This document shows positions 1-55,422 of a stretch of 64,000 bases of DNA, one piece after another. A program made the translations under genes and the position numbers. The DNA comes from a virus (Duplodnaviria; Caudoviricetes). The number at the start of each line of letters is the position of its first letter. The stretch's first letter is position 1. Under the pieces are notes generated by a model. That model did no database searches. It worked only from the letters and a program-made list of their open reading frames with translations, and had not been told where the DNA came from. The DNA is taken from IMG/VR virus record IMGVR_UViG_3300037067_021792, one strand, 5' to 3'.

Positions 1-2
1 AT

Positions 3-965
3 TCCGGCGGGCAGCAAACTCCGGAGAATAGTATTGGTGGGTATATTGCCCCTAATGACGTGTATGTGTCAACTTTAATATCGGATCCAATATCAAAATC
101 CCAGATAACAATCCCATTGGCTTCTGGTTCAGACGAACCGCCATCTTCTGGATTGGCACAAGTTGGGTCAGAAATTATTAGATATACATCTGAAAATAAT
201 GATAATCTGTATGGATTAACGAGATCGATATTTCCGTCATCATCGTTCGCGGCGGTAGTTACTCCGCACGCAGATATAGTTAGATATTTAGATATAGATA
301 GGATATTTAATAAAAATCCGGTTTCTGGTGTGTCTCAGTATCGATGTATAGCCGTATTGCATGAATCATCGGACAATATGTATGTTGATGATGTAAAAAT
401 CCAATTAAAACAAAATTTAAACACAAACACTACAATAGATGTTGGAATTGAAGTTCCAAAATTTGATGTTCATAGTGGAACATTCTACGAAGACATGCTA
501 TCTGGATCAAATATATTTGAAAGTGCCGACTTGGATGGTTCAGGATATGACACTGGGTTTTTCGAAGGCGCATATATGATAATAAATCCATCGGCATCTG
601 CCAATGGCGTATTGGTTGATAGCTTTGACATTAACCTATCAGGCCGAGCTGAATTTATTATTGACAGAACCCTATCTATAGACGTAATAGCTGGTACTTA
701 TTTTAGAATAGTTCCGGCTCCATCTCAATCATCCCCGAATGATATTACTAGGCCCAATGAAAACAGCGGCAGATTCCTAGGTTTTATTGGGGAGGGAGGG
801 CAAAATAGTATTGGGTATGCAGGTATTAGAGAAAGGGGCGGAAGAATGAATAATCATGAGCTGTTTTATATTTGGATTAAAAGGTCGATTAAACAGAACT
901 CACCAGAAGATGACAGCTCCGGAGCAATGCTAATATTAGAGTTCAACGAATCTTCAAGGTATTAA
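3..965 (+). CDS. Putative virion structural protein (5'-truncated by window edge)
   Basis: Frame of ORF 60..965 is open back to nt 3 (SGGQQTPENSIGGYIAPNDVY...). Beta-rich S/D/G composition; coupled to the downstream structural block. Confidence 0.55.
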   Translation, partial: SGGQQTPENSIGGYIAPNDVYVSTLISDPISKSQITIPLASGSDEPPSSGLAQVGSEIIRYTSENNDNLYGLTRSIFPSSSFAAVVTPHADIVRYLDIDRIFNKNPVSGVSQYRCIAVLHESSDNMYVDDVKIQLKQNLNTNTTIDVGIEVPKFDVHSGTFYEDMLSGSNIFESADLDGSGYDTGFFEGAYMIINPSASANGVLVDSFDINLSGRAEFIIDRTLSIDVIAGTYFRIVPAPSQSSPNDITRPNENSGRFLGFIGEGGQNSIGYAGIRERGGRMNNHELFYIWIKRSIKQNSPEDDSSGAMLILEFNESSRY

Positions 966-966
966 A

Positions 967-2001
967 ATGGGGTATCTTTCGTCAGTAAAAGCTCACTGGT
1001 CGTTTAACAACAATATTGAGGATAGTGCTCTCAATAATGATTTTGTTTCATCTGGTCCTATTGTGTTATTTGGCAGATATTCTGTCTACAATATGGTTTC
1101 AAATCAAACAGAAACAAAATACGGGGTTTTATTAGACAATTATTATACTGCAAATTCTGTCAATCTTTTAAATCTAGGTAACACTGCCCATGATTTTACT
1201 ATATCTTTTTGGTGGTATTCACCATCTGTAGTTGGATATACCAGGCATGCAATTACCAGAAAAGAGACCAGCAAGGTAACCCCAATTGTGGGAAAAGGAA
1301 GAGTAGTTGAAGATGAATCATTTAAATTTGTCGATGATGGCGAATTTATAATTTCAGAAGTATCAGCATCTTCATCTTGTAATGCCATTAAACTGGAAAT
1401 ATGTACTACAAACAGCAGTCCGACTCATGAGTATCTTTCAAAATCATATATACCTGGCCTTCATCATGTGATGATTTCTTATAAATCTACTATAGATCCG
1501 ATTTCAGAAATAAAAATAATAATAGATGGAGAACAAGGAGAAACGCAGTTCGGTCCAGAATATAATATGTCCACAACCTTGTCAAATATATATGTCAATA
1601 GACTATATCATGGGTATCTTGCCCATGAAAGCAGGCAGGTTGGATCTTTTATTTCAGATTTAGTAATTAAAACTAGTAACGCAGATAATGCGGAACGTGA
1701 TGCCATAAGAAACATTAGATTTGGAACTAATTATATAGTAGATAAGAGTCTAGAACATGTTGAGCATGAATTTTTTGGATTGGGTTATTCACAGCCATCA
1801 ACTATTACGACTAAACAAATTTATGCATCGGGGGGAAACATATATGTCGCAAGATCAAACGGGGATATACTAAAAGGATATCGCCCTATATGGGATACAG
1901 AATCCAACTATGCAACAGACGGATCTAATTTAACCTCTAACCCCAAAATTACCGTGACATCAAATGGACTGAGGATTGCCGGAACCACCATAAGGATATA
2001 G
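967..2001 (+). CDS. LamG/concanavalin A-like domain virion protein
   Basis: AHWSFNNN, FTISFWW, GLHHVMISY, IIIDG pattern typical of LamG folds; starts 1 nt after the previous stop. Confidence 0.55.
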   Translation: MGYLSSVKAHWSFNNNIEDSALNNDFVSSGPIVLFGRYSVYNMVSNQTETKYGVLLDNYYTANSVNLLNLGNTAHDFTISFWWYSPSVVGYTRHAITRKETSKVTPIVGKGRVVEDESFKFVDDGEFIISEVSASSSCNAIKLEICTTNSSPTHEYLSKSYIPGLHHVMISYKSTIDPISEIKIIIDGEQGETQFGPEYNMSTTLSNIYVNRLYHGYLAHESRQVGSFISDLVIKTSNADNAERDAIRNIRFGTNYIVDKSLEHVEHEFFGLGYSQPSTITTKQIYASGGNIYVARSNGDILKGYRPIWDTESNYATDGSNLTSNPKITVTSNGLRIAGTTIRI

Positions 2002-2002
2002 G

Positions 2003-5000
2003 ATGGCGTATATTGATATAATACGAGTAAACGGGCAGCAATCTAGTGGCACTATAACTCCAGTAATTGCCGGGTTAAATCCCGTATTTACATGGGACTA
2101 TGTAGAAACCGCCGATGCCTTGTCTCAGATGACGTTTGAAATACAAATAGGAACTAGCTCCGACAATTGGGGCACAGATATATTCAACTATAATATTTTA
2201 CAGGATTCTGGGGAATCATCTAATTCCTATGAATACTATAAACACTCTCTTCTCAGGGGTGTTGTATACTATGGGCAAATTAGATCAATCGACGAGGACC
2301 ACGAGGAAACATCCTGGTCTATGTTTTCTTTTAAAATAAACAGGGTTCCCACAGCAATAAATCCTCACTTAACTCCATATAATCCAACGTCATCTGACCA
2401 TATAGATGTAAATTATACCTTTGCAGATCCGGATGGACATGAAGAATCTGGCACCAAAATCAGATGGTATAGAGATGGGTTGCCGGTCCTAGAATACGAT
2501 GATTTATGTACTTTGCCCGCATCGGCGACATATCCCGGAGAGTCGTGGAATGCCCGTATTATTCCAAGCGATGGACTAGAGTTTGGAATGGTATCAGAAA
2601 CAGGGTCGGTTGTAATAGGTCAATCCGATATCTACATATCCTATATTACAATATTACCATCCGATGCAAATGTTGATGATATTCTGAAAGCGGATTATGC
2701 TATTATTGATAATGAGTATTCTCCATTCACGGGGACTATATTAATCGAGTGGTATGTTAATGGGACTTTATGCTCATCTTCTAGCTCACAATATGTTAGG
2801 CTGTCTTTGGAACCGGGAGATTATGTTTACGCTGTGATTAAAATAATCGAGGGGAGTTCAATTATATCACAAAAACAGAGTTCTGCTGTGATAATTTCTG
2901 ACGTGGTTTGGCATTTAACATCTCTAGAAATAAGTGGTTTATCTAATCCAACGTATCTGAACGATTTAACTCCTATGGTAGAGTGGAAAGTCTTTAAGAC
3001 TACTGCGGAGTCCAGGGAAAAGCCGGACTATTTTAGGTTCTTTATAACTAAAACTCCATCCTTTGACGGTGCGGTATTTGATACAGGATATACTCAGTAT
3101 GTTAAGGACTCATATTCTATACCAGAAAATGTCCTATCCAGGGGAAACCAATATTTCATCCACGTAGGAGCCGGAGATACGACTCCATTTGATGAAAATT
3201 TATATATTACTAAAGAAATTAAAATATCAGGTTCTAGTTGGTCAGAAAATGTCAGTAATAATATTGGATGGACAATAGAGTTCCGGGCGGGAATTGAAAT
3301 CAATGATGACAATGGAGATCCTATAGACCCGACTAGCCTAGATTACACGCCTAATATTGGATTGTATATTAATGATGGAACGTATTTCTGTGCTGTTGTG
3401 CTAGGACTAAAAAACATAACATTCATATCAGATAGCTCAATAGTTTATACGTATGCATCTAATTTGGGCTCTTTGCAGATAACTGGAGCATCCACAGGAC
3501 ATACTTTCCAAATATGTGGGAAAGAAAATGATGTAAGAATATACATGGACGGAAAAGTAGTTTTAGATGCAATTGGACTGCTTACAAACAAATCTGCCCT
3601 TAAGAATATTGAATACGGGAACATTGATGGTAAACATGAGAATATTGCTGTTTTTAGATATTTTAGATATTCAACAAAGGGCGCGTATGGCCTAGACCAA
3701 AATGTGAACAATCCAAATTTGTTCTATTTTTCAAATATTGGGACCATAGATGGCGGATCGATAGAGTTTGTATACGATAATTTTATTTCATTTACATCAG
3801 ATAACGGAGTTGATTCCAGCAAATTAATAACGTTTAATGAGACTGGCGATACCATAAAACTCCCAACTGTAGTGAAAAATTATTCTCCTATTACATCAAT
3901 ATATATAGACGAAAATAGATCAAAATTTATTGGAACAGCCAATGGAGTAACTGCGATATACGGAGATAAACACGACCCCGATTACGTATTACTTACGAGT
4001 GGTTCAGACTTTAACGGAATAAAGCCTGAAGATTTTGATAGAATATCGAATGTACCGATAGATAAATTATCTCTTGTAGAACCAAATGCCAGAACTGGTT
4101 GGTTTACGATAGATACAACATATAGAACCATCGGAACGATAATTCCAGGAACTAGATTTTTAACAGGAGCAGGTGACCCTTATAATCCATATTCTCCGGA
4201 AATTTTAAGTCGTGCGATTCATTATTATAGCCAGAGGACCCACGGGCATTCTTGGTTTGACAGAGTTGACAACAAAATAGGTTGGCAAGTTGCATTTTCT
4301 TTTAATTTAGAGTATTTGGAAGCCGATGATTTTCAGGAAACAGATATTGATAAAACTGATTTTGGAATATATATTAACGATGGAACACGCCAAGAGATAA
4401 TATACTTTTACAAAGATAGGATACGGCTATATTACGCCAATATATATGTTCCTTTAGATACTACAAAAATCAGAAATTATGTGATATCCGGCAAAGATGA
4501 CAGTCTGCTTATCTACCAAAGATTGTTTAACTCTTCTACATCTGGATATCAACTGTCTCTCAATGGGGCGGGGTTGTTCACAACTCCATCAGACAAATCT
4601 GGAAACAGCAGAAACCCCAATATAGAGGTAGATAGTTTTGGGTTTTACCATGCAGTATGGCACGATGATGGGGATAGATGGTCTAAAATCGTATATTCTT
4701 TTTATGACGGCCAATCATGGTCTCAGCCCGAATCAGTTGTTGAGTCTTCAAAATTTAACTTGAGAAATCCTCGAATAAGCATTGACAGCCATGACCGAAT
4801 ATGGGTGGTATACGAAGACACATCTTGGGGTAATACGGAGATATCGGTTAGTGTCCGAGATACTGTGGGTTGGAATTCCAAAACGCGGGTTACAAATTTT
4901 TCAAGCCAGAAATCTAATCCTGATATCATAATAGACACTAACAATAACGTCCATCTAGTTTGGCAAGATAACAGGAACGGGAACTGGGAGATATTATGGT

Positions 5001-33743: not shown

Positions 33744-33828
33744 ACCAATGGCTAGTGATGCTGAAACTGAAACCATCTGCGATGAATGCTTGAACAGGGA
33801 CAATGACAAAAAATCCAATAGAAATTAG
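33664..33828 (+). CDS. Small zinc-ribbon protein
   Basis: CCKCG...ICDEC; ATG 33664 within ORF 33616..33828. Confidence 0.5.
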   Translation: MLIKRSNPKQTNVKVSRKLKKCCKCGKPMASDAETETICDECLNRDNDKKSNRN

Positions 33829-36787
33829 AATAGGAAATGTTGTTTCAGATATTCTGGGTGATCTATCTCCTATCCATTGGAAAGAGATAGAGAAAAGAAT
33901 GTCATTTCGCCCCCAGAACTATATTTTCACTCCATCGTATAATAAAATCATCCACACAAAGGATGGTCGAAGATTTAGAATGTGGGATGGATGGAAAAGA
34001 TTAATACACAAAAACACTAAGCGAACCTATTTTCCAACTGGACTTTATTCTATAGCATCTTCTTTTTTTAAAGAAGAATTAATACCATATAAAGTGGTCG
34101 ATACTAGAGTAAAACCTTGTCCCAATTTAAATTTATCTCTTTCAGAATATTTGATACCCAGAGATTACCAAAACAAAGTTGGGTTAGATTCTGTTATAAA
34201 GGAAAGAGGAATAATTCAGGCGGCAACTGGAAGTGGCAAAACCGCAATATCGGCGATAGTTATTGCTAGTTTGAAGGTCTCCCCGTTTTTATTTTTTGTC
34301 ACATCTATCGACTTATTAACACAAGCCAAGTCGGAGCTTGAAAAATTCCTCCGAATAGACGGAAAACCATTTGAGGTCGGTCAGATCGGTGGTGGAAGTG
34401 TCGAAATTAGAGATATTAATGTTATTACGGTCCAAACCGCTGTGCGGGCGCTGGGCAAAAAGTGGGACAATAAAACTAAATTCGATGATGATGACACAGA
34501 CGACCCAACTCCCATAGAATCTAGATCAGAAGAAATAAAATCACTTATTCGACACGCAAAGGGTGGGGTTTGTGACGAAACCCAGCATTGGAGGTGTGAC
34601 ACATGTCAAATTATAGCAAAGGAATTGGTTGAGTGCTATTATATTTACGGCACAAGCGCCACACCTTATCGAGATGAAAGCGATGACTTGATGATTCAGT
34701 CTTGCTTTGGTAAAAAAATTGCCGAAATTACAGCCAGTGAACTGATACAAAAGAATTGGCTGATAAAACCATCTATAAAAATGGTTCATATTCGACAACC
34801 TAAGACCAAGTTCAGACAGTGGCATTCAATTTACAAAGAATGCGTAACAAATAATGACTACTACAACAACGTAATATCAAATATAGCTAATGCCTACATT
34901 GAGCAGGATAGGTTAGTTTTAATTTTAGTCCAACAAATCAATCACGGGAAATTATTGGAAAGTATGATACCTGGATCAATGTTTTTATCAGGGAAAAGTC
35001 CCAAACAAAAAAGAATAAACACGCTTAATAAACTACGAAATAAAGAAATAAGTTGTATTATATCGAGCAGCTTACCCTATAATGAATTATTGTTAATTAA
35101 ACAAAATGGAGTTATAAAACAAATAGAGATTGGTGACTTATGTCACAATTTCGCTCCCCAAGTGAAAAATAATGAAATAGATGTTTGCTGTTCTTTTGAT
35201 GGTAAAAATGCATCTTGGAGTAAAGTAACAGACATTCATATACATCGAAGATCAAACAACATTGTTCGAGTCGAAACGAATCGAGGAGAGGACATATACG
35301 TAACCGAGAATCACTCGCTAATTAAATCAGATTTATCTCCCGTCCTCCCCCAAATATCAGGGGGCGCATGCGTACCAATCAATGTGCCACCTCTTGATTA
35401 TCCTGTTAATATAATTAACGTTGCCGAATTGCTTAAAGATATAAACGATCCATCAATAGAGGTAGAGGTTCTAGGTATTACACAGCCTATGATTAGAAAG
35501 ATTAAAAGTGAGTACACTTATGTTTATGGCGGAAATCATAAGATATCAAAATCAACTCGATGGTTGGTAAAAAATCGTATTCATAATAAAAACCAGGAGT
35601 ATTTTACTGCAATATATCAATTGATTAACAACTTCAAGTATTATAAATATAAGTACAGAGCAAGGTTATCCGATGTTTGGTGGTGTAAGGAGCTTTTTAA
35701 TGAATTTAAATGTCGTATTTATATTAGACGAAGCCGAAAAGAATTCTCATTACCCGTGCTGATTCCCATAACAGATGATTTGGCAACTCTTTCTGGACTA
35801 ATGTGTGGTGACGGTCATATTAAAAATCACACTAGAGGAAAATCCTGCAAATCAATATATTCCTTTGAATTTGCAGGATTAAAAGATATGTCAACATCTC
35901 CGGAGGGGCACAATGATCCCAACAAACTAGCGGTTCGGGATATATTTAAAAGATGTTTTCACGGTGTTTTTGGTGACACGAAATTAAGAGAAACAGATAC
36001 ATTAATTTTGTTTAGGAGTAAATTAATGTACTATTTATTTTGGAAACTGGGGCACATTGATACATATGGGCAAAAAAGAGTTCCAGACTATGTATACAAC
36101 TCGGCACCTTCGATACAAGAGAAATTTTTATGGGGGATGTACTTAAGTGATGGAAGTCTAAAAATAGACTATAATAGTAAATCTAGAAAAACATCAGCTT
36201 TTATTATTCATAACACTAGTCGCCCTTTAGTAACCGGAATACAATATGTTCTAAGAATGTTGCGACTTCCTTTTTATGTCAATACCAGTTATTGTTATAA
36301 TCCTAAACGAAAAAGAGTATACAACATAAGTATCGTAAGGTCTACCTGTGATGTTAAAATAGACAGAACTGGTCGAGATAAATTAAACTATAACGATTCA
36401 AATCGTTATCAGAAAACAGTGGAGTTTATAAACAGTACGCCTGAATTTGTGTATGATATTTCGGTTGATAAATGTCATAATTTTATCGCAGGATGTGGAG
36501 TTTTAGCACATAATTCGATCTTTGATGAGGGGATTGATGTTAAGCCGCTTGATACATTATTGCTGGCCGGACAGGGAAAAAGCAGAGTTCGTGCTATGCA
36601 GAGAATCGGGAGAATATTAAGGCCATTTAAGGATACCAATGGACGAGAAAAAACCACTGCTACAGCCATTGATTTTTGTATTCATCAGAAATATCTGGAA
36701 GATCACGCCAAAGCTAGGGAAAAAATGTATTCAACAGAACCCGAGTTTGTGGTTGAGAACATAGACAACAAGGCAATCCACCTATGA
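33803..36787 (+). CDS. SF2 DExH helicase (UvsW/XPB-like) containing an intein
   Basis: PRDYQ, AATGSGKT, DETQH, SATPYR, (S)IFDEGIDV, QRIGRILR. Confidence 0.9.
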   Translation: MTKNPIEIRIGNVVSDILGDLSPIHWKEIEKRMSFRPQNYIFTPSYNKIIHTKDGRRFRMWDGWKRLIHKNTKRTYFPTGLYSIASSFFKEELIPYKVVDTRVKPCPNLNLSLSEYLIPRDYQNKVGLDSVIKERGIIQAATGSGKTAISAIVIASLKVSPFLFFVTSIDLLTQAKSELEKFLRIDGKPFEVGQIGGGSVEIRDINVITVQTAVRALGKKWDNKTKFDDDDTDDPTPIESRSEEIKSLIRHAKGGVCDETQHWRCDTCQIIAKELVECYYIYGTSATPYRDESDDLMIQSCFGKKIAEITASELIQKNWLIKPSIKMVHIRQPKTKFRQWHSIYKECVTNNDYYNNVISNIANAYIEQDRLVLILVQQINHGKLLESMIPGSMFLSGKSPKQKRINTLNKLRNKEISCIISSSLPYNELLLIKQNGVIKQIEIGDLCHNFAPQVKNNEIDVCCSFDGKNASWSKVTDIHIHRRSNNIVRVETNRGEDIYVTENHSLIKSDLSPVLPQISGGACVPINVPPLDYPVNIINVAELLKDINDPSIEVEVLGITQPMIRKIKSEYTYVYGGNHKISKSTRWLVKNRIHNKNQEYFTAIYQLINNFKYYKYKYRARLSDVWWCKELFNEFKCRIYIRRSRKEFSLPVLIPITDDLATLSGLMCGDGHIKNHTRGKSCKSIYSFEFAGLKDMSTSPEGHNDPNKLAVRDIFKRCFHGVFGDTKLRETDTLILFRSKLMYYLFWKLGHIDTYGQKRVPDYVYNSAPSIQEKFLWGMYLSDGSLKIDYNSKSRKTSAFIIHNTSRPLVTGIQYVLRMLRLPFYVNTSYCYNPKRKRVYNISIVRSTCDVKIDRTGRDKLNYNDSNRYQKTVEFINSTPEFVYDISVDKCHNFIAGCGVLAHNSIFDEGIDVKPLDTLLLAGQGKSRVRAMQRIGRILRPFKDTNGREKTTATAIDFCIHQKYLEDHAKAREKMYSTEPEFVVENIDNKAIHL
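35069..36514 (+). mobile_element. Intein with in-frame LAGLIDADG homing endonuclease (482 aa), in helicase motif V
   Basis: Starts SLPYNE; block B VTENHSL; LAGLIDADG motifs LSGLMCGDG and FLWGMYLSDG; ends VYDISVDKCHNFIAGCGVLAHN before Ser+1. Removal restores IISS-SIFDEGIDV. Confidence 0.9.
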
Positions 36788-50049: not shown

Positions 50050-50380
50050 AATAACAGTGGTTAAAATTGTGGATCAACAAATTACCGATATTGATCTAAT
50101 TCGGGATATTCTGGTATTTATTAAAGAAAAAGAGCTAGATTGTGCTGTAAGGCTCCTAGAGCAAAACTTATTTAATAAAGTTAGAATTGTAAATATCGAT
50201 GGAGACGATATTACTTGTCATATTATTAAATCCAGTGCCTGTTTAAAAAAACACATAAAAATTTCTGATATAGCATATTTAGAATTAACAACCGAAGATA
50301 GGATATTGAATAACTTTAAACCAGGCACCACTAGATGGAATTTATTGAGTGCTAGTGATATAGATGAAACAGGAATTTAA
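50030..50380 (+). CDS. Hypothetical protein
   Basis: 116 aa, TAATG-coupled to dnaE-N. Confidence 0.6.
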   Translation: MRYVANKITVVKIVDQQITDIDLIRDILVFIKEKELDCAVRLLEQNLFNKVRIVNIDGDDITCHIIKSSACLKKHIKISDIAYLELTTEDRILNNFKPGTTRWNLLSASDIDETGI

Positions 50381-51672
50381 TGGTAGATTTTGTACATATA
50401 CATTCGCATTCGTCATTTTCAAAATTCGATGGCTTTTCTAAGATAGATGATACCCTAGACAAAGATGATAACATCGTCATGCCTGGCATAGTTGGCACAG
50501 CCAAGCGAATGGGCATGCCAGCAGTCGCGCTAACAGACCACGGCACCGTTGCCGGAGCAATTACATTCTTAAAAGCTTGTCGTAAGGGTGATGTAGGTAT
50601 CAAACCCATTCTGGGAATGGAAGCATACCAATCCAGAGATCACGCGTGCCATTCTACGGAAGGGCAACCAGATAAACGGCGAGGCAACAGGCATGTAATT
50701 ATCTTGGCGAAGAACTCTCAGGGATATGCCAATCTGTGCACATTATCTCAGATAGCATCCCTCGAAGGATACCATTATGATCCTCGTATTGATATCGATC
50801 TGCTCGATAAATATAAAGAGGGGCTGATTGTTTCGACCGCATGTTTATCAAATGTTGTTAACTGGAATCTATCCATAGACAGATACGAAAAAGCAAAAGC
50901 AGCAGCAGCAATCTACAAGGATATTTTTGGAGATGATTTTTATCTTGAAATGATGTATCATGGACTAGATTTGGAAGCAAAAGTATTGCCAGGTATACAA
51001 AAAATTTCCAAAGAACTCAATGTCAAATCTATTGTGACAAATGACTGTCATTATGTTGAAAAATCGCATGCTAAGTATCATGAAACGCTTATGTGTATGA
51101 GTTCGGGACGATCCATTAAAGACCCTAAACATATTAAGTTTCCATACGATGAATTTTATTTCAAATCTGGCGACGAAATGGCTGAGGTGTTCGGCCATCT
51201 GCCAAGGTCAATGGCTAATACATTAGAAATTGCTGAAAAATGTGATTACTCTGATATGAATCTCGGGCAGAGAATGTTATTGCCTAAATTTGATCTACCA
51301 GAAGGATATGCGCTTTCATTTGATTATCTAAAAGACATGGCGTGGAAAGGACTACAATCGAAAGGATTAAATGATTCAGTTCCTCACCGAGAGAGACTTC
51401 AGAGAGAACTTGATGATGTCAAGTTGATTTGGGATACACAAAAATTTGGATTTGATACATATTTTCTAATAGTGCGTGATATAATTGAATTTACTCGCAG
51501 AAAGAAAATACCCGGCGGTATTAGAGGTTCGGGATACGGATCTTTACTTTTGTACTGTCTCGGTATATCAGAAGGCGTAGACCCAGTGCGATACAATCTC
51601 CTTTGGGAACGGTTTTTGGGATTTGAATGGGCTTATAAACTATTTCGATCTGATTTTGGCATAAAAGATTGA
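50380..51672 (+). CDS. dnaE: DNA polymerase III alpha, N-terminal part (PHP domain and start of palm)
   Basis: HIHSHS, ALTDHG, IKPILGMEAY, NDCHY, RGSGYGSLLLYCLGI, LLWERFL; stops before the catalytic PDxDxD. Confidence 0.9.
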   Translation: MVDFVHIHSHSSFSKFDGFSKIDDTLDKDDNIVMPGIVGTAKRMGMPAVALTDHGTVAGAITFLKACRKGDVGIKPILGMEAYQSRDHACHSTEGQPDKRRGNRHVIILAKNSQGYANLCTLSQIASLEGYHYDPRIDIDLLDKYKEGLIVSTACLSNVVNWNLSIDRYEKAKAAAAIYKDIFGDDFYLEMMYHGLDLEAKVLPGIQKISKELNVKSIVTNDCHYVEKSHAKYHETLMCMSSGRSIKDPKHIKFPYDEFYFKSGDEMAEVFGHLPRSMANTLEIAEKCDYSDMNLGQRMLLPKFDLPEGYALSFDYLKDMAWKGLQSKGLNDSVPHRERLQRELDDVKLIWDTQKFGFDTYFLIVRDIIEFTRRKKIPGGIRGSGYGSLLLYCLGISEGVDPVRYNLLWERFLGFEWAYKLFRSDFGIKD

Positions 51673-51697: not shown

Positions 51698-52090
51698 GTG
51701 AACATGCTTAATATAGTCGTGACAACACCAAAATCTGAATTAGAAAATTCCAAACAAGAAGCTACTCGATGTCTCAATAATGGGGGTGGATACTATTTTC
51801 GCAGATTACCAACGCGTCCCAAAAATATAGATGTTGGGAGCAAAATATTCTATGTGGAGGATGGGTATATTCGCGGGTTTGGTGTCATAAGTGATATTGA
51901 AGACAAATCAGACGGTATGGAATGTTCTACAACGGGGACTAAGTGGCGTCCCGGCACATATGTTACCATCCCGGCTGATTCGTGGAAATGGATTAAACCG
52001 ATTCCAATGAAGGGGTTTCAGGGCTGGAGATATTTAAATAATGTAGAAGTTGAGATTGTTGGGGGATGGAAAGATCCTAAACCGGAGTGA
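51698..52090 (+). CDS. PUA-fold (ASCH/EVE/DUF1489-like) protein between the dnaE halves
   Basis: GSKIFYVEDGYIRGFGVI and terminal PMKGFQGWRYL resemble PUA/ASCH-superfamily signatures. Confidence 0.55.
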   Translation: MNMLNIVVTTPKSELENSKQEATRCLNNGGGYYFRRLPTRPKNIDVGSKIFYVEDGYIRGFGVISDIEDKSDGMECSTTGTKWRPGTYVTIPADSWKWIKPIPMKGFQGWRYLNNVEVEIVGGWKDPKPE

Positions 52091-55000
52091 ATATGTCTAA
52101 AGAACGAGATAGGGTAGTATCTATAGTAAAAGAAATAAATCCACCCGAGCTGATATCTCAGAAAGATAGATTAAATTCTGAATTATCCAGAATGGATGAT
52201 ATGGGGGTTCTGCCTAATCTGCTATCAATATACGACGATATTAAAAAGAATCCAAATCTAAAAGGAAACACAAACGTCCCTAATTCGCTTCTAGTATATT
52301 GTATGGGTATCACATCAAAACATCCGGATGGGGAATTTACTCTTGAAAAACGACGAGTTTATGGCAGAGATGGATGGCCAGATATTGATATGGATTTCTG
52401 TTATGAACGCAGGCATGAGGTTATAGAGTATTTAATTGAGAAATATGGTCGAGATAAAGTTGCAAATATAGGAACCGTGCAAACTCTAAAAACTAAATCT
52501 GCTTTGCGTCGTGTCATCCGGGCAGTAGATCCGGAAGGGTCTGTGGCCCAGGGTGATCCGAGTAGAAATTTTCAATTTCAAAATGAAATTCTTAATACTC
52601 TTCCCAAATCCAGTATCATGAAAAGAGCGGATGGAACAATCATAGAAGATCTACAGCAAGCATATGATGAGTTCTCAGAATTTCGAAGATATATGGACAA
52701 ATATCCACAAGTATTCGAAATGGCAAAAAATTTAGAAGGTGGCATTTCTGCATGGGGCGCACATGCAGCCGGAATTGTAATATCTCCAATACCCCTGTCT
52801 GAAATATGTCCGTTGCATGTCACAAAAGGAATGGCAGATGATGACACGGCAGAAAAGACCGAATACCAGCCAGAAAAAATGGTTGCTACTCAGTTCTCAA
52901 TGAGCGATGTGGAATCTGTCGGACTTATTAAAATGGATATCCTCGGTTTATCTACCAAGACTGCTATTAATTTAGCTGTAGAGTTAATCAAACAAAACCA
53001 CAGCATCGATGTAGATGTCGCTAATATTCCATTGGATGACAAATTGACTATCAATTTGCTGAAATCAGGACACACCGATGGATGCTTCCAATTAGAAGAA
53101 GTTGGCATGAAGCAAACTATCCAACAAATTGACATAGACTCTTTCGGCGATTTAATGATAGCAATAGCAATGTATAGACCGGGGCCCAAAGACTATATAC
53201 CAGAGATTGCCAGTCGTAAAAAGGGGCAGAAAAAGATTGATTATCCCCATCCTCTTATGGAAAAAATAACCAAAGAAACCTACGGTATTATGTCTTATCA
53301 AGAGGAGGTTATGCAAGTTTTTATGTCACTTGCTGATCTACCACCATCAGAGGGATACACTTTCATGAAAGGTTGTGCTAAGAAGAAAAAGAAATTAATT
53401 CAAGATGCTAAGGATAAATTTATTAAAGGAGCTGTTGCCCGTGGTGTGCCTAAACAGACAGTTCAAAAAATATGGGGGGACATGGAAAAATTCGGTGGAT
53501 ATGCCTTCAACAAGTCACTGTCCCACAACGAGAAAATCATAACCTCCGAAAAGGACCTCTCTATCCAAGAATTGTATAATAGAAAGACCAGAGGAGAAAA
53601 ACTGCCGAATGTATATAGTCCAGACGGAAAATCAATTAGAATTGCAGATGTATACGATCATGGTGTAATTCCTGTTTGGGAGGTTATATTTAGTGACGGA
53701 AGTATTCATAAATGCTCGATGAATCACAGATTTTTAACCACTAGCGGCGTTCTGCCTCTGCATGATATTTTAAAACATAAAGTATCAGTTATACAGAATG
53801 CGGAGATATTACATGCCCAAAAGGAAAGATTGGATTTGTTCAGGATGCCAGGCTCTTTTGACGAACCGCCGGCTTTTCGATGTCCACAAACGGGAATGCA
53901 AGAAGTACCATCTAAGCAAAAAACACTTCGAATGCCAGGGTTGCTATCAGAAGTTTACAAAAAGGGGACTGTGGAAGCACAAGAGAGAATGTGCTCTGTG
54001 GAAATCTCTCAAATCAGACCACTACTCACAACCAAACTCAATAAATTCAAGAAAATTTTGGGATCAAATACACCAGGATCCTACACAAATGGAGGCATAC
54101 AAAAACAAGGTGTCGATATCGGTATCGTTGTCGATTCTTGCAAATCAAACAGAGAGACAGCGCAGGTCAATATTGATGTCCAAATTAAACCAGAATTATT
54201 ACGATCTATTTCAAAAAAATCGATCCGACACAGCAGCAAAAACATCCGCAAGACCGGACATACAAAAGCAAAGAGCCATGCGATTGAAGAAATGGAGAGA
54301 AGAGAATCCCGAGAAGTTTATGAAAATAATCAGCAGTTGGCAATCAGCCCCGGAATGCATGCTCAAAACTATATTGTTGCCAATGGGATTCAAACATTCT
54401 CAAATAGTGAAAAGTCAAAAGTTTACATCCAAGTCAAAAAGAAGACAAATAGATTTTATGGATCAATCCCGCAAAATAGTAGTAGAATACGATGGACAGT
54501 ATCATTTCTCGAACAGAGATGCTCTCAGATTCAACCAAGAGAAACAAAAGGATTTGGAGGTAAATCAGGTTCTTTGCAGCAGAGGATATCTAGTGATACG
54601 AATGTCTTACGATGTATGGAGGTATTCCAAAAAAGAGTTCAAAAACGAAGCTTTAGGAATTCTTTTCAACCTGATTTGCAATTGCTCAGAAAGAAGTATA
54701 GTCAAAACAATTGGAAAGAAGTACAAATCATAGGTATAAAATACGTAGGGATGGAACAATGTTATGATTTGGAAGTGGACAGTCCAGAGCATCTTTATTG
54801 TTTGTCATCGGGTATTATTAATAGCAATTCTCATGCCTGCGCTTATGCATATGAAAGTTGGAAAACTGCGTATCTAAAGGCCCACTTTCCTGTTGAATTT
54901 GTTTCGGCCCGTATGACTGTTGAAGCTAAACGCAGAAAATTTGATTATGTAGAGAAGTGCGAAAGAGATGCCACTAGTCATTTTGGCATTAAAATACTCC

Positions 55001-55341
55001 CTATAGATTTGAATAAGTCCAAGATGTCATATACAATAACAGGGGACAAAGAGTTGCGTAGACCTTTGATTATTAAAGATATTGGTGATAAGGCTGCTGA
55101 AGAGATAATTAAACACCAACCTTATGATGTTCAGGACTTGTTTTATTCGTTTGCTTCTGTGGTTGGTCCCGCTGTTAACACCAGAGTTATTGAGGCATTA
55201 TGTGATGCCAAATTATTCGGTGACATAAAGAAAGCTAAAGCTTTGAAAGATTTCGATGATATCAAGAACGATAGAAAGAAATCAGTGGGCAGGCAAACTG
55301 GGGATATTTTTGGCTCTAACCGTGTATCCCGGAAAAAATAA
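52087..55341 (+). CDS. dnaE: DNA polymerase III alpha, C-terminal part (catalytic palm, fingers, HhH) with intein; no OB-fold
   Basis: PDIDMDF, HAAGIVIS, GLIKMDILGL, GCFQLE, YRPGP, YQEE, YAFNK|SHACAYA, YLKAHFP, IKDIG. SD favours ATG 52093. Confidence 0.9.
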   Translation: MNMSKERDRVVSIVKEINPPELISQKDRLNSELSRMDDMGVLPNLLSIYDDIKKNPNLKGNTNVPNSLLVYCMGITSKHPDGEFTLEKRRVYGRDGWPDIDMDFCYERRHEVIEYLIEKYGRDKVANIGTVQTLKTKSALRRVIRAVDPEGSVAQGDPSRNFQFQNEILNTLPKSSIMKRADGTIIEDLQQAYDEFSEFRRYMDKYPQVFEMAKNLEGGISAWGAHAAGIVISPIPLSEICPLHVTKGMADDDTAEKTEYQPEKMVATQFSMSDVESVGLIKMDILGLSTKTAINLAVELIKQNHSIDVDVANIPLDDKLTINLLKSGHTDGCFQLEEVGMKQTIQQIDIDSFGDLMIAIAMYRPGPKDYIPEIASRKKGQKKIDYPHPLMEKITKETYGIMSYQEEVMQVFMSLADLPPSEGYTFMKGCAKKKKKLIQDAKDKFIKGAVARGVPKQTVQKIWGDMEKFGGYAFNKSLSHNEKIITSEKDLSIQELYNRKTRGEKLPNVYSPDGKSIRIADVYDHGVIPVWEVIFSDGSIHKCSMNHRFLTTSGVLPLHDILKHKVSVIQNAEILHAQKERLDLFRMPGSFDEPPAFRCPQTGMQEVPSKQKTLRMPGLLSEVYKKGTVEAQERMCSVEISQIRPLLTTKLNKFKKILGSNTPGSYTNGGIQKQGVDIGIVVDSCKSNRETAQVNIDVQIKPELLRSISKKSIRHSSKNIRKTGHTKAKSHAIEEMERRESREVYENNQQLAISPGMHAQNYIVANGIQTFSNSEKSKVYIQVKKKTNRFYGSIPQNSSRIRWTVSFLEQRCSQIQPRETKGFGGKSGSLQQRISSDTNVLRCMEVFQKRVQKRSFRNSFQPDLQLLRKKYSQNNWKEVQIIGIKYVGMEQCYDLEVDSPEHLYCLSSGIINSNSHACAYAYESWKTAYLKAHFPVEFVSARMTVEAKRRKFDYVEKCERDATSHFGIKILPIDLNKSKMSYTITGDKELRRPLIIKDIGDKAAEEIIKHQPYDVQDLFYSFASVVGPAVNTRVIEALCDAKLFGDIKKAKALKDFDDIKNDRKKSVGRQTGDIFGSNRVSRKK
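53572..53586 (+). promoter_or_regulatory. Promoter-like TTGTATAATAGAAAG inside the intein
   Basis: Identical 15-mer occurs in the intergenic region at 55384-55398. Confidence 0.45.
53813..54733 (+). CDS. Nested +1-frame homing endonuclease (two zinc fingers and a Vsr/DUF559-like nuclease)
   Basis: CSGC..H.REC and CQGC..H.REC repeats; QIDF....IVVEYDGQYH...KD......GYLVIRM. GGAGA SD 6 nt before ATG 53813 (ORF track start 53798). Confidence 0.8.
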   Translation: MPKRKDWICSGCQALLTNRRLFDVHKRECKKYHLSKKHFECQGCYQKFTKRGLWKHKRECALWKSLKSDHYSQPNSINSRKFWDQIHQDPTQMEAYKNKVSISVSLSILANQTERQRRSILMSKLNQNYYDLFQKNRSDTAAKTSARPDIQKQRAMRLKKWREENPEKFMKIISSWQSAPECMLKTILLPMGFKHSQIVKSQKFTSKSKRRQIDFMDQSRKIVVEYDGQYHFSNRDALRFNQEKQKDLEVNQVLCSRGYLVIRMSYDVWRYSKKEFKNEALGILFNLICNCSERSIVKTIGKKYKS

Positions 55342-55383
55342 TTTCAAAAATTTTCAGATTTTTCGCCAAATCGTAAAATTCTG

Positions 55384-55420
55384 TTGTATAATAGAAAGTA
55401 TTAAGTAAATAGGAGATATT
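55384..55420 (+). promoter_or_regulatory. Promoter (-10 TATAAT) and SD for the recombination operon
   Basis: AT-rich intergenic gap, TATAAT 55387-55392, AGGAG before GTG 55423. Confidence 0.55.
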
Positions 55421-55422
55421 CC

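Follow-up and report, generated by a model that had tools for sequence, protein, structure and literature searches.

The stretch of DNA described here, which we refer to as the window, comprises 64,000 nucleotides (nt) of the virus record IMGVR_UViG_3300037067_021792 (Caudoviricetes). It carries a gene for the C-terminal part of the DNA polymerase III alpha subunit (dnaE), whose product matches the Pfam families DNA_pol3_alpha, DNA_pol3_finger and HHH_6 and is interrupted by an intein; inside the intein, a second gene for a putative homing endonuclease is read in the +1 frame relative to the polymerase. The features of the locus are the following, where ORF stands for open reading frame, IntN and IntC for the two splicing parts of the intein, and pLDDT for the predicted local distance difference test:

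52087..55341, + strand: dnaE C-terminal gene (DNA polymerase III alpha: palm/NTPase, fingers and helix-hairpin-helix), an open ORF of 1084 codons including the intein
53515..54828, + strand: intein of 438 codons at FNK|SH, with bounds taken from the alignment with intein-less homologues
53515..53814, + strand: IntN, N-terminal splicing part of about 100 residues (pLDDT 86-96; 40-64% identity among relatives)
53572..53586, + strand: promoter-like 15-mer TTGTATAATAGAAAG in IntN, where it encodes L-Y-N-R-K; the nuclease start follows about 230 nt downstream
53802..53807, + strand: Shine-Dalgarno-like GGAGAT, read in the sequence, 7 nt before the nuclease ATG
53813..54733, + strand: homing-endonuclease gene nested in the +1 frame (306 codons and a TAG stop; DUF559 match, fold, relatives)
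53815..54711, + strand: read-through of the nuclease gene in the polymerase frame, a linker of about 295 residues (pLDDT about 32; zero stops)
53831..54001, + strand: two C2HC zinc fingers (C9/C12/H25/C29 and C41/C44/H56/C60), seen as beta-beta-alpha elements in the predicted fold
54335..54724, + strand: Vsr-like (DUF559 / EDxHD-type) nuclease domain (conserved D214, E225, D227, H231 and D247; fold match)
54712..54828, + strand: IntC, C-terminal splicing part of 39 residues (pLDDT 85-95 from residue 400)
55384..55398, + strand: second copy of the 15-mer, intergenic, before gene 55423; the best sigma-70-like site in the region

The intein and its splicing domain

The boundaries of the intein follow from the comparison with homologues that lack it: the intein-less polymerases P0021 and P0026 read GGYAFNK-SHA without a break, and exactly there the window carries 438 extra codons, while in more than 60 homologues in total FNK-SH is uninterrupted. 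Read in the frame of the polymerase, the insert starts with SLSHNEKIITS and finishes with GIINSN, after which SH follows. A dnaE intein with 438 open codons at 53515-54828, as had been proposed from the sequence in a first-pass annotation, is therefore borne out by the ORF and by this alignment. The residues expected of a class 1 intein are present, i.e. Ser1, the block-B His71, the F-block His426, Asn438 and the Ser at position +1 of the C-extein, with His71 and Asn438 being invariant among nine sequences.

The structure of the intein has been predicted with nine relatives. Residues 1-100 and 400-438 are modelled with pLDDT values of 85-96 (about 90), and Foldseek matches these ends to the Npu and Ssp DnaE inteins, to DnaB mini-inteins and to the gp41-1 intein (E 2e-6, probability 1.00); on the strength of these models, the ends are predicted to form a Hint fold. 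The IntC part conserves NW.EV / EQCYDLEVD in the polymerase frame. Residues 102-396, which lie between the two splicing parts, are predicted to be unstructured (pLDDT about 30-35), and this middle part matches no family of Pfam or PHROG, in agreement with the earlier description of a central region without a recognisable domain. As a separate observation, three relatives (L006, 2893-4122; L007, 2620-3849; L010, 2908-4140) have an intein subtype that starts with Thr (TLYFSEG or TLHFSEG), an unusual first residue, and we refer to these as the Thr1-type inteins.

The nested gene and the selection on its two frames

The +1 frame is open from 53798 to 54733, and since the conserved N-terminus of the relatives begins at the ATG at 53813, the start of the gene is placed there and not at 53798. 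The encoded protein scores 24.3 bits against Pfam DUF559 (cut-off 20.6) and is predicted, with a mean pLDDT of 92.6, to comprise a pair of zinc fingers with beta-beta-alpha topology, seven helices and a nuclease domain of the alpha/beta type; with this score and this fold, the two zinc fingers and the Vsr/DUF559-like nuclease that had been read by eye in the frame at 53813-54733 are well supported. The comparison of residues 175-304 with known structures by VIA-align gives Z scores of 12.0 and 11.4 for the Vsr entries 1cw0 and 1vsr, 10.6 for the DUF559 protein 3hrl, and 10.2 for the catalytic domain of I-Bth0305I (3r3p), of which 95/97 residues are aligned. The nuclease fold on which the first-pass annotation depended is thus present by structure prediction, with matches at Z 10-12. 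Among 38 family members, D214, E225, D227 and D247 are invariant and H231 is conserved in at least 90%; we infer that these acidic and histidine residues correspond to the catalytic residues of Vsr or I-Bth0305I.

The N-terminus of the nuclease carries the two C2HC zinc fingers and not the NUMOD or helix-turn-helix (HTH) motifs, which are typical of the EDxHD family but do not define it; a profile search of the PDB returns C2H2-type matches for the fingers, and Pfam ROS_MUCR is matched in 12/38 family members. The nested nuclease of the Thr1-type inteins has one zinc finger. An exhaustive HMMER search with the nuclease has found 188 cluster representatives, mostly of 250-350 amino acids (aa), 153 of them below 1e-10, and the +1 protein therefore belongs to a real protein family. 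Unlike this search, a word-seeded protein search with the nuclease gave no match, and a scan of IMG/VR with the single nuclease protein likewise gave none. At its 3' end, the gene shares 22 nt (54712-54733) with IntC: the same nucleotides encode the C-terminus of the nuclease (IGKKYKS, conserved as IGKxYK) and the residues with which the structured part of IntC begins, and both frames are therefore under constraint in this overlap.

Relatives have been collected by a polymerase search, which gave many homologues of the same length, the DNA of eight of which was obtained; four more loci came from scans of IMG/VR and of JGI metagenomes, and the collection amounts to 13 distinct assemblies, whereas scans of GTDB genomes with P0024 and with the intein alignment gave no match. 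The exteins of the relatives are 46-61% identical to those of the window. The +1 frame is open for 279-328 codons in 13/13 assemblies, with both frames open, while stops close the third frame, 27-42 of them in each of the nine genes analysed at first; the four later loci have stops there as well.

A stop can arise in the polymerase frame only where a nuclease codon that ends in T precedes AA, AG or GA. In the window, 0/107 nuclease codons in this context end in T, compared with 59/204 elsewhere; synonymous resampling of the gene predicts about 29 stops in the polymerase frame, with a minimum of 15 in 20,000 trials, where none is observed, and the analytic probability of zero stops is about 1e-18. 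The remark in the first-pass annotation that codon endings other than T keep the polymerase frame free of stops holds quantitatively, and the same avoidance is found in all nested copies, none of which has T in the third position in any of its 80-113 contexts (Fisher p 1e-8 to 1e-17). Homologues in other arrangements serve as natural controls: in the free-standing genes (L013, L017, L020 and L022), in a gene that lies between the halves of a split intein (L030) and in one that is fused in frame to IntN (L027), the corresponding frame contains 8-62 stops and T is not avoided.

These controls therefore rule out the explanation that two compensating indels conceal an ordinary in-frame endonuclease domain, which the first-pass annotation had itself named as a finding that would overturn its reading. 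Such a domain does have a natural parallel in the in-frame fusion of IntN and nuclease in another phage (L027, polymerase P0133), but the layout of the window recurs in 13 independent assemblies from different samples and centres, the polymerase frame bears the codon signature of long-term stop avoidance, and stops in the +1 frame closely precede the conserved ATG, so that we consider an artefact of this kind to be hardly credible.

When identical columns are compared among the relatives, identity is 50% for the nuclease frame and 25.5% for the polymerase frame, and the nucleotide differences at positions 1, 2 and 3 of the nuclease codons are 0.42, 0.32 and 0.60, respectively. From this contrast and this codon-position pattern, it follows that selection preserves the protein sequence of the nuclease and does no more than keep the polymerase frame open: judged from the alignments, purifying selection acts on the +1 frame and not on the middle of the polymerase frame, which is only purged of stops. 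The selection pattern bears on whether the nested ORF might be a relic whose nuclease is no longer made, with the intein persisting only by vertical descent. Decay does occur at this site, as seen in shorter inserts of 292, 215, 184 and 146 aa, and one nested copy (L010) is without a canonical start codon; nevertheless, stops would soon gather in an abandoned +1 frame, to which the polymerase frame gives no protection, whereas this frame has stayed open and retains 46-56% identity between deeply diverged relatives, its putative catalytic residues are invariant, its predicted fold is confident and, as described below, the intein and extein trees are discordant. We regard a relic as very unlikely.

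Putative expression signals and mobility of the nested gene

In the eight relatives that were checked first, the intein begins 283-298 nt before the ATG of the nuclease, and the nuclease genes of the four later loci also start with ATG, the N-termini reading M(P/A/G)(K/T/A)R(K/Q/R)DW or nearly so. A purine-rich GGAG, AGGAG or GGAGGA occurs at the same place upstream in most relatives. In the window, GGAGATATTacATG at 53802-53815 and GGAGATATTccGTG before gene 55423 can both be read, i.e. the nested ORF and this gene have similar ribosome-binding sites, as had been noted before.

These signals also bear on the possibility that a programmed +1 ribosomal frameshift makes a fusion of N-extein, IntN and nuclease in place of internal initiation. 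L027 encodes just such a fusion in frame; against a frameshift stand the position of the ATG and the Shine-Dalgarno-like sequences upstream of it, the stop that directly precedes the ATG in the +1 frame of L003 and L006, which leaves no room to shift, and the lack of a conserved RNA structure upstream of the nuclease start (0 consensus pairs), where a weak hairpin (z -2.4) is seen for the window taken by itself. We judge this alternative to be slightly less probable still than a relic.

The 15-mer TTGTATAATAGAAAG occurs exactly twice, at 53572 inside IntN and at 55384 in the intergenic region, and the earlier report of a shared 15-mer is exact. In a codon alignment of seven genomes, 17 of the 212 columns that are invariant in amino acid are also invariant in codon, and nowhere in the gene except at TTG TAT AAT (TTGTATAAT) are two or more such columns adjacent; this run lies inside the 15-mer and is kept in all genomes that have L-Y-N. 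The product of codon frequencies over the seven genomes is about 2e-7 for this run, assuming independence. Downstream of dnaE, TGTATAAT or TGnTATAAT is found 30-45 nt before the next gene in 10/11 relatives, and the intergenic element at 55341-55422 of the window and nearly all of its equivalents in L003-L015 share one order: a conserved T-rich stretch, then (T)TGTATAAT, then a Shine-Dalgarno sequence, before a small gene. To judge from this conservation, the intergenic element is probably a clade-wide promoter. An internal promoter is plausible because the codon-invariant TTGTATAAT is also the motif of the -10-like element downstream of dnaE, and the suggestion of a promoter inside the intein has in this way gained support. 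Taken together, the conserved ATG, the Shine-Dalgarno sequences and the codon-invariant TTGTATAAT suggest that the nuclease has expression signals of its own.

Inserts at this site are present in 23 of the 120 best polymerase homologues, and are mostly 410-450 aa long, the others having 292, 215, 184 and 146 aa. The short inserts (146 aa in P0093, 184 in P0025, 215 in P0044 and 292 in P0024) have the same intein ends, and probably represent the mini-intein and stages in the decay of the nuclease. The presence of an insert is not clustered on the extein tree (FastTree), where it requires 19 changes, at least 13 of which are forced by well-supported branches. In addition, P0006 and P0012 have exteins that are 91% identical and inteins of different subtypes that are 54% identical, while P0011 and P0012 have exteins that are 58% identical and inteins that are 74% identical. 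From the patchy presence and the discordant histories of inteins and exteins, we conclude that the unit moves, as is expected of homing.

The same distribution, with intein swap between near-identical exteins, is the classic signature of homing, and it speaks against the idea that the nuclease has been domesticated, i.e. that it cuts competitor or host DNA, or stimulates recombination at the replication module, the homing of the intein having been lost; nor has the nuclease been found outside this site within the loci of the clade. In favour of domestication, the association is long, the divergence of intein and nuclease being similar to that of the exteins, and phage homing nucleases mediate the exclusion of relatives. 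Domestication is, in our estimation, improbable, although it is the least improbable of the alternatives.

Two further arrangements have been observed at this site. The first is a fractured dnaE gene at the same FN(K/A)|SH site (L030, IMGVR_UViG_3300050025_000103, 1-3824), which consists of three overlapping ORFs in successive frames:

1-1818: N-extein and IntN, ending in a stop
1781-2785: Vsr-like nuclease of 335 codons (32% identity, E 4e-43 to the window nuclease)
2730-3824: IntC (EQCYDLEVD...TSN) and C-extein

The second is a DnaE fragment with an upstream mini-intein (L027, 3001-5340), in which, at FNR|T, IntN continues in the same frame into a Vsr-like nuclease with zinc fingers, and the ORF ends with this nuclease; neither IntC nor a C-extein is found in the following 3 kb, the next gene being Pyr_excise, and the fusion could be a trans-splicing partner or a decayed gene.

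We propose that the insertion in dnaE is a mobile unit of two overlapping genes, a mini-intein and a homing endonuclease in the +1 frame with its own expression signals, and assign to this reading a probability of roughly 85%. The first gene would encode a class 1 mini-intein of about 140 residues, the halves of which are joined by a linker of about 295 residues; the linker would be the reading of the second gene in the -1 frame, structureless and purged of stops alone. The polymerase precursor would be translated straight through, IntN and IntC would pair as in the split DnaE inteins, and protein splicing would remove the intein together with the linker and join FNK to SH. The second gene would encode a homing endonuclease of the free-standing type, with zinc fingers, a helical region and a Vsr-like/EDxHD domain, read from an ATG and a Shine-Dalgarno sequence of its own and probably transcribed from a promoter inside IntN. 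Given its family and its patchy, incongruent distribution, the enzyme would cleave the dnaE gene of co-infecting relatives that lack the intein, close to the FNK|SH codons, and repair would copy the intein and the nuclease gene together. The layout of the window would then be the unbroken counterpart of the fractured form. A free-standing endonuclease gene that lies out of frame in a mini-intein, with the polymerase frame kept open, is what the first-pass annotation had envisaged, and the comparative data support it; its model of invasion is supported by the 146-aa mini-intein P0093 and by the fractured split intein of L030 at the same site.

Several points weigh against this proposal. With respect to splicing, the penultimate residue of the intein is Ser437, invariant in the family, and not His, although a penultimate His is not universal among active inteins, and the linker of 295 residues could slow splicing. 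With respect to expression, no sigma-70 -35 partner was found for the internal TATAAT, the three Thr1-type inteins are without the internal TTGTATAAT, and TGTATAAT is not enriched across the window (4 on the + strand, compared with 3.4 expected); at the conserved N-terminus of the L010 nuclease there is no ATG, GTG or TTG, and GGAGGA is located 6 nt before an ATT. With respect to the nuclease, its tie to I-Bth0305I is one of fold and conserved residues only: searches of the PDB with phmmer and with a profile of 14 nuclease-domain sequences gave no significant match, the best relevant one being 3hrl (E 0.66).

The states found at the site are the intein-less one, the 146-aa mini-intein, the overprinted intein, the fractured gene (L030) and the in-frame fusion of IntN and nuclease (L027). 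We offer tentatively, the odds being somewhat against it, the idea that this one site records the interconversion of mini-intein, overprinted intein and split intein: the overprinted intein would be a stable intermediate, one nonsense or frame change away from the fractured form, or the reverse, and the nuclease would bring its own promoter into an essential replication gene, its timing being set apart from that of the polymerase.

Known systems and the surrounding phage genes

In the fractured genes described by Dassa et al. 2009 (PMC2677866), the two halves of a split intein flank a free-standing endonuclease gene of the Vsr-like or GIY-YIG type. These genes share with the window the type of nuclease, the class of host gene (three of their loci are DnaE) and the phage origin, as well as the overlap of the 3' end of the nuclease with the IntC coding sequence, which amounts to 6-69 bp in those loci and to 22 nt in the window. 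L030 matches their arrangement, with the host gene broken into two ORFs that carry the intein halves; the window differs in having one continuous ORF, polymerase and intein forming one chain.

Non-canonical inteins, with a homing endonuclease in another frame or on the other strand, have been described by Gosselin, Arsenault and Gogarten (bioRxiv 10.1101/2025.01.02.630785); the actinophage cases in that work include an endonuclease VII-like gene in frame 3 and an antisense Vsr-like gene, and the authors trace antisense LAGLIDADG genes in inteins to Gorbalenya 1998. A cyanobacterial dnaX intein holds a LAGLIDADG gene that has been termed '+2ORF' (bioRxiv 10.64898/2026.09.14.751524). The layout of an out-of-frame intein nuclease is, therefore, already published (2025-26), and the caution on novelty in the first reading of the window was right. 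What the non-canonical inteins share with the window is an out-of-frame endonuclease ORF between the splicing blocks, an unbroken host frame with a foldless middle and a sporadic distribution, and the secondary invasion of a mini-intein has been proposed for them as well. In contrast, the gene described here is a sense-strand, +1-frame Vsr-like gene with C2HC zinc fingers, found in the dnaE of uncultivated giant phages, and a fractured sibling exists at the same site. New with respect to those papers are the sense-strand +1 zinc-finger Vsr-like gene in dnaE, the series at a single site that includes the fractured sibling, and the codon-invariant, promoter-like motif.

I-Bth0305I, located in a group I intron of recA, is the prototype EDxHD homing endonuclease (Taylor et al. 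2011, PMC3239194; PDB 3r3p). Common to it and to the nested nuclease are the Vsr-like catalytic domain (Z 10.2) with conserved acidic and His residues, the order of a DNA-binding N-terminus and a nuclease C-terminus, and the residence in a self-splicing element of a phage replication or repair gene; I-Bth0305I has NUMOD/HTH motifs where the nested nuclease has zinc fingers, and there is no significant sequence match between them. An out-of-frame HNH gene is hidden in a phage methylase insertion (the ShiLan domain; Arsenault et al. 2025, PMC11855218), where, as in the window, an endonuclease gene overlaps an insertion that stays in frame with the host gene and contains no stops when read in that frame; unlike the intein, that insertion has no splicing domain and is retained in the host protein.

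For the splicing domain, the best structural match is the cyanobacterial split DnaE intein (Npu/Ssp; E 2e-6, 25-29% identity), the halves of which have similar sizes, about 100 and 36-39 residues; in contrast to the intein of the window, its halves are encoded at loci far apart, and no nuclease gene accompanies it. Its insertion site presumably lies a few residues upstream, before CFNK. The predicted splicing domain, which resembles the fast Npu DnaE intein and would tolerate a linker of about 295 residues, may be of interest to protein engineers.

The nested gene is listed in 0/11 of the public records that we have examined. Since gene callers miss nested genes, homing endonucleases in phage inteins are under-counted, and inteins with nested genes are taken for decaying ones. 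The clade also constitutes a natural experiment on dual coding, in which one nuclease family occurs both overprinted, with no stops in the host frame, and free-standing, with 8-62 stops. The succession of states at this one site (intein-less, mini-intein, overprinted, fractured and fused in frame) bears on the origin of split inteins; if the interconversion outlined above is true, this origin can be tested with natural sequences from one site.

A protein identical to the dnaE product of the window is found on a contig of 270,634 bp, and the window contains ORFs of 2,200-3,100 codons, all on one strand; we therefore conclude that the source of the window is an uncultivated giant phage. A comparison with GenBank phage records gave neither a DNA nor a protein match. 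The three very large ORFs on the + strand (2722, 2258 and 3119 codons) are located at 2003-27426.

The polymerase is split over two genes: 50380-51672 encodes the PHP domain and the beginning of the NTPase domain, and the gene that starts at 52087 encodes the remainder; a DUF1489-like gene (51698-52090) is located between them. The same layout is observed in L008, while L016 has an unsplit DnaE of 1521 codons, and in most of the other relatives an AAA_28 gene is located upstream of the C-terminal dnaE gene. A ResIII-type helicase gene of the window (33803-36787) holds a second intein (Pfam Intein_splicing, residues 441-904; an insert of about 460 residues), in which no long nested ORF was seen at a threshold of 150 aa or more. 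Lastly, the dnaE genes of L011 (1361-5032), P0006 and P0007 contain an extra intein further upstream, at ISAYG|C...HN|CHAAG.

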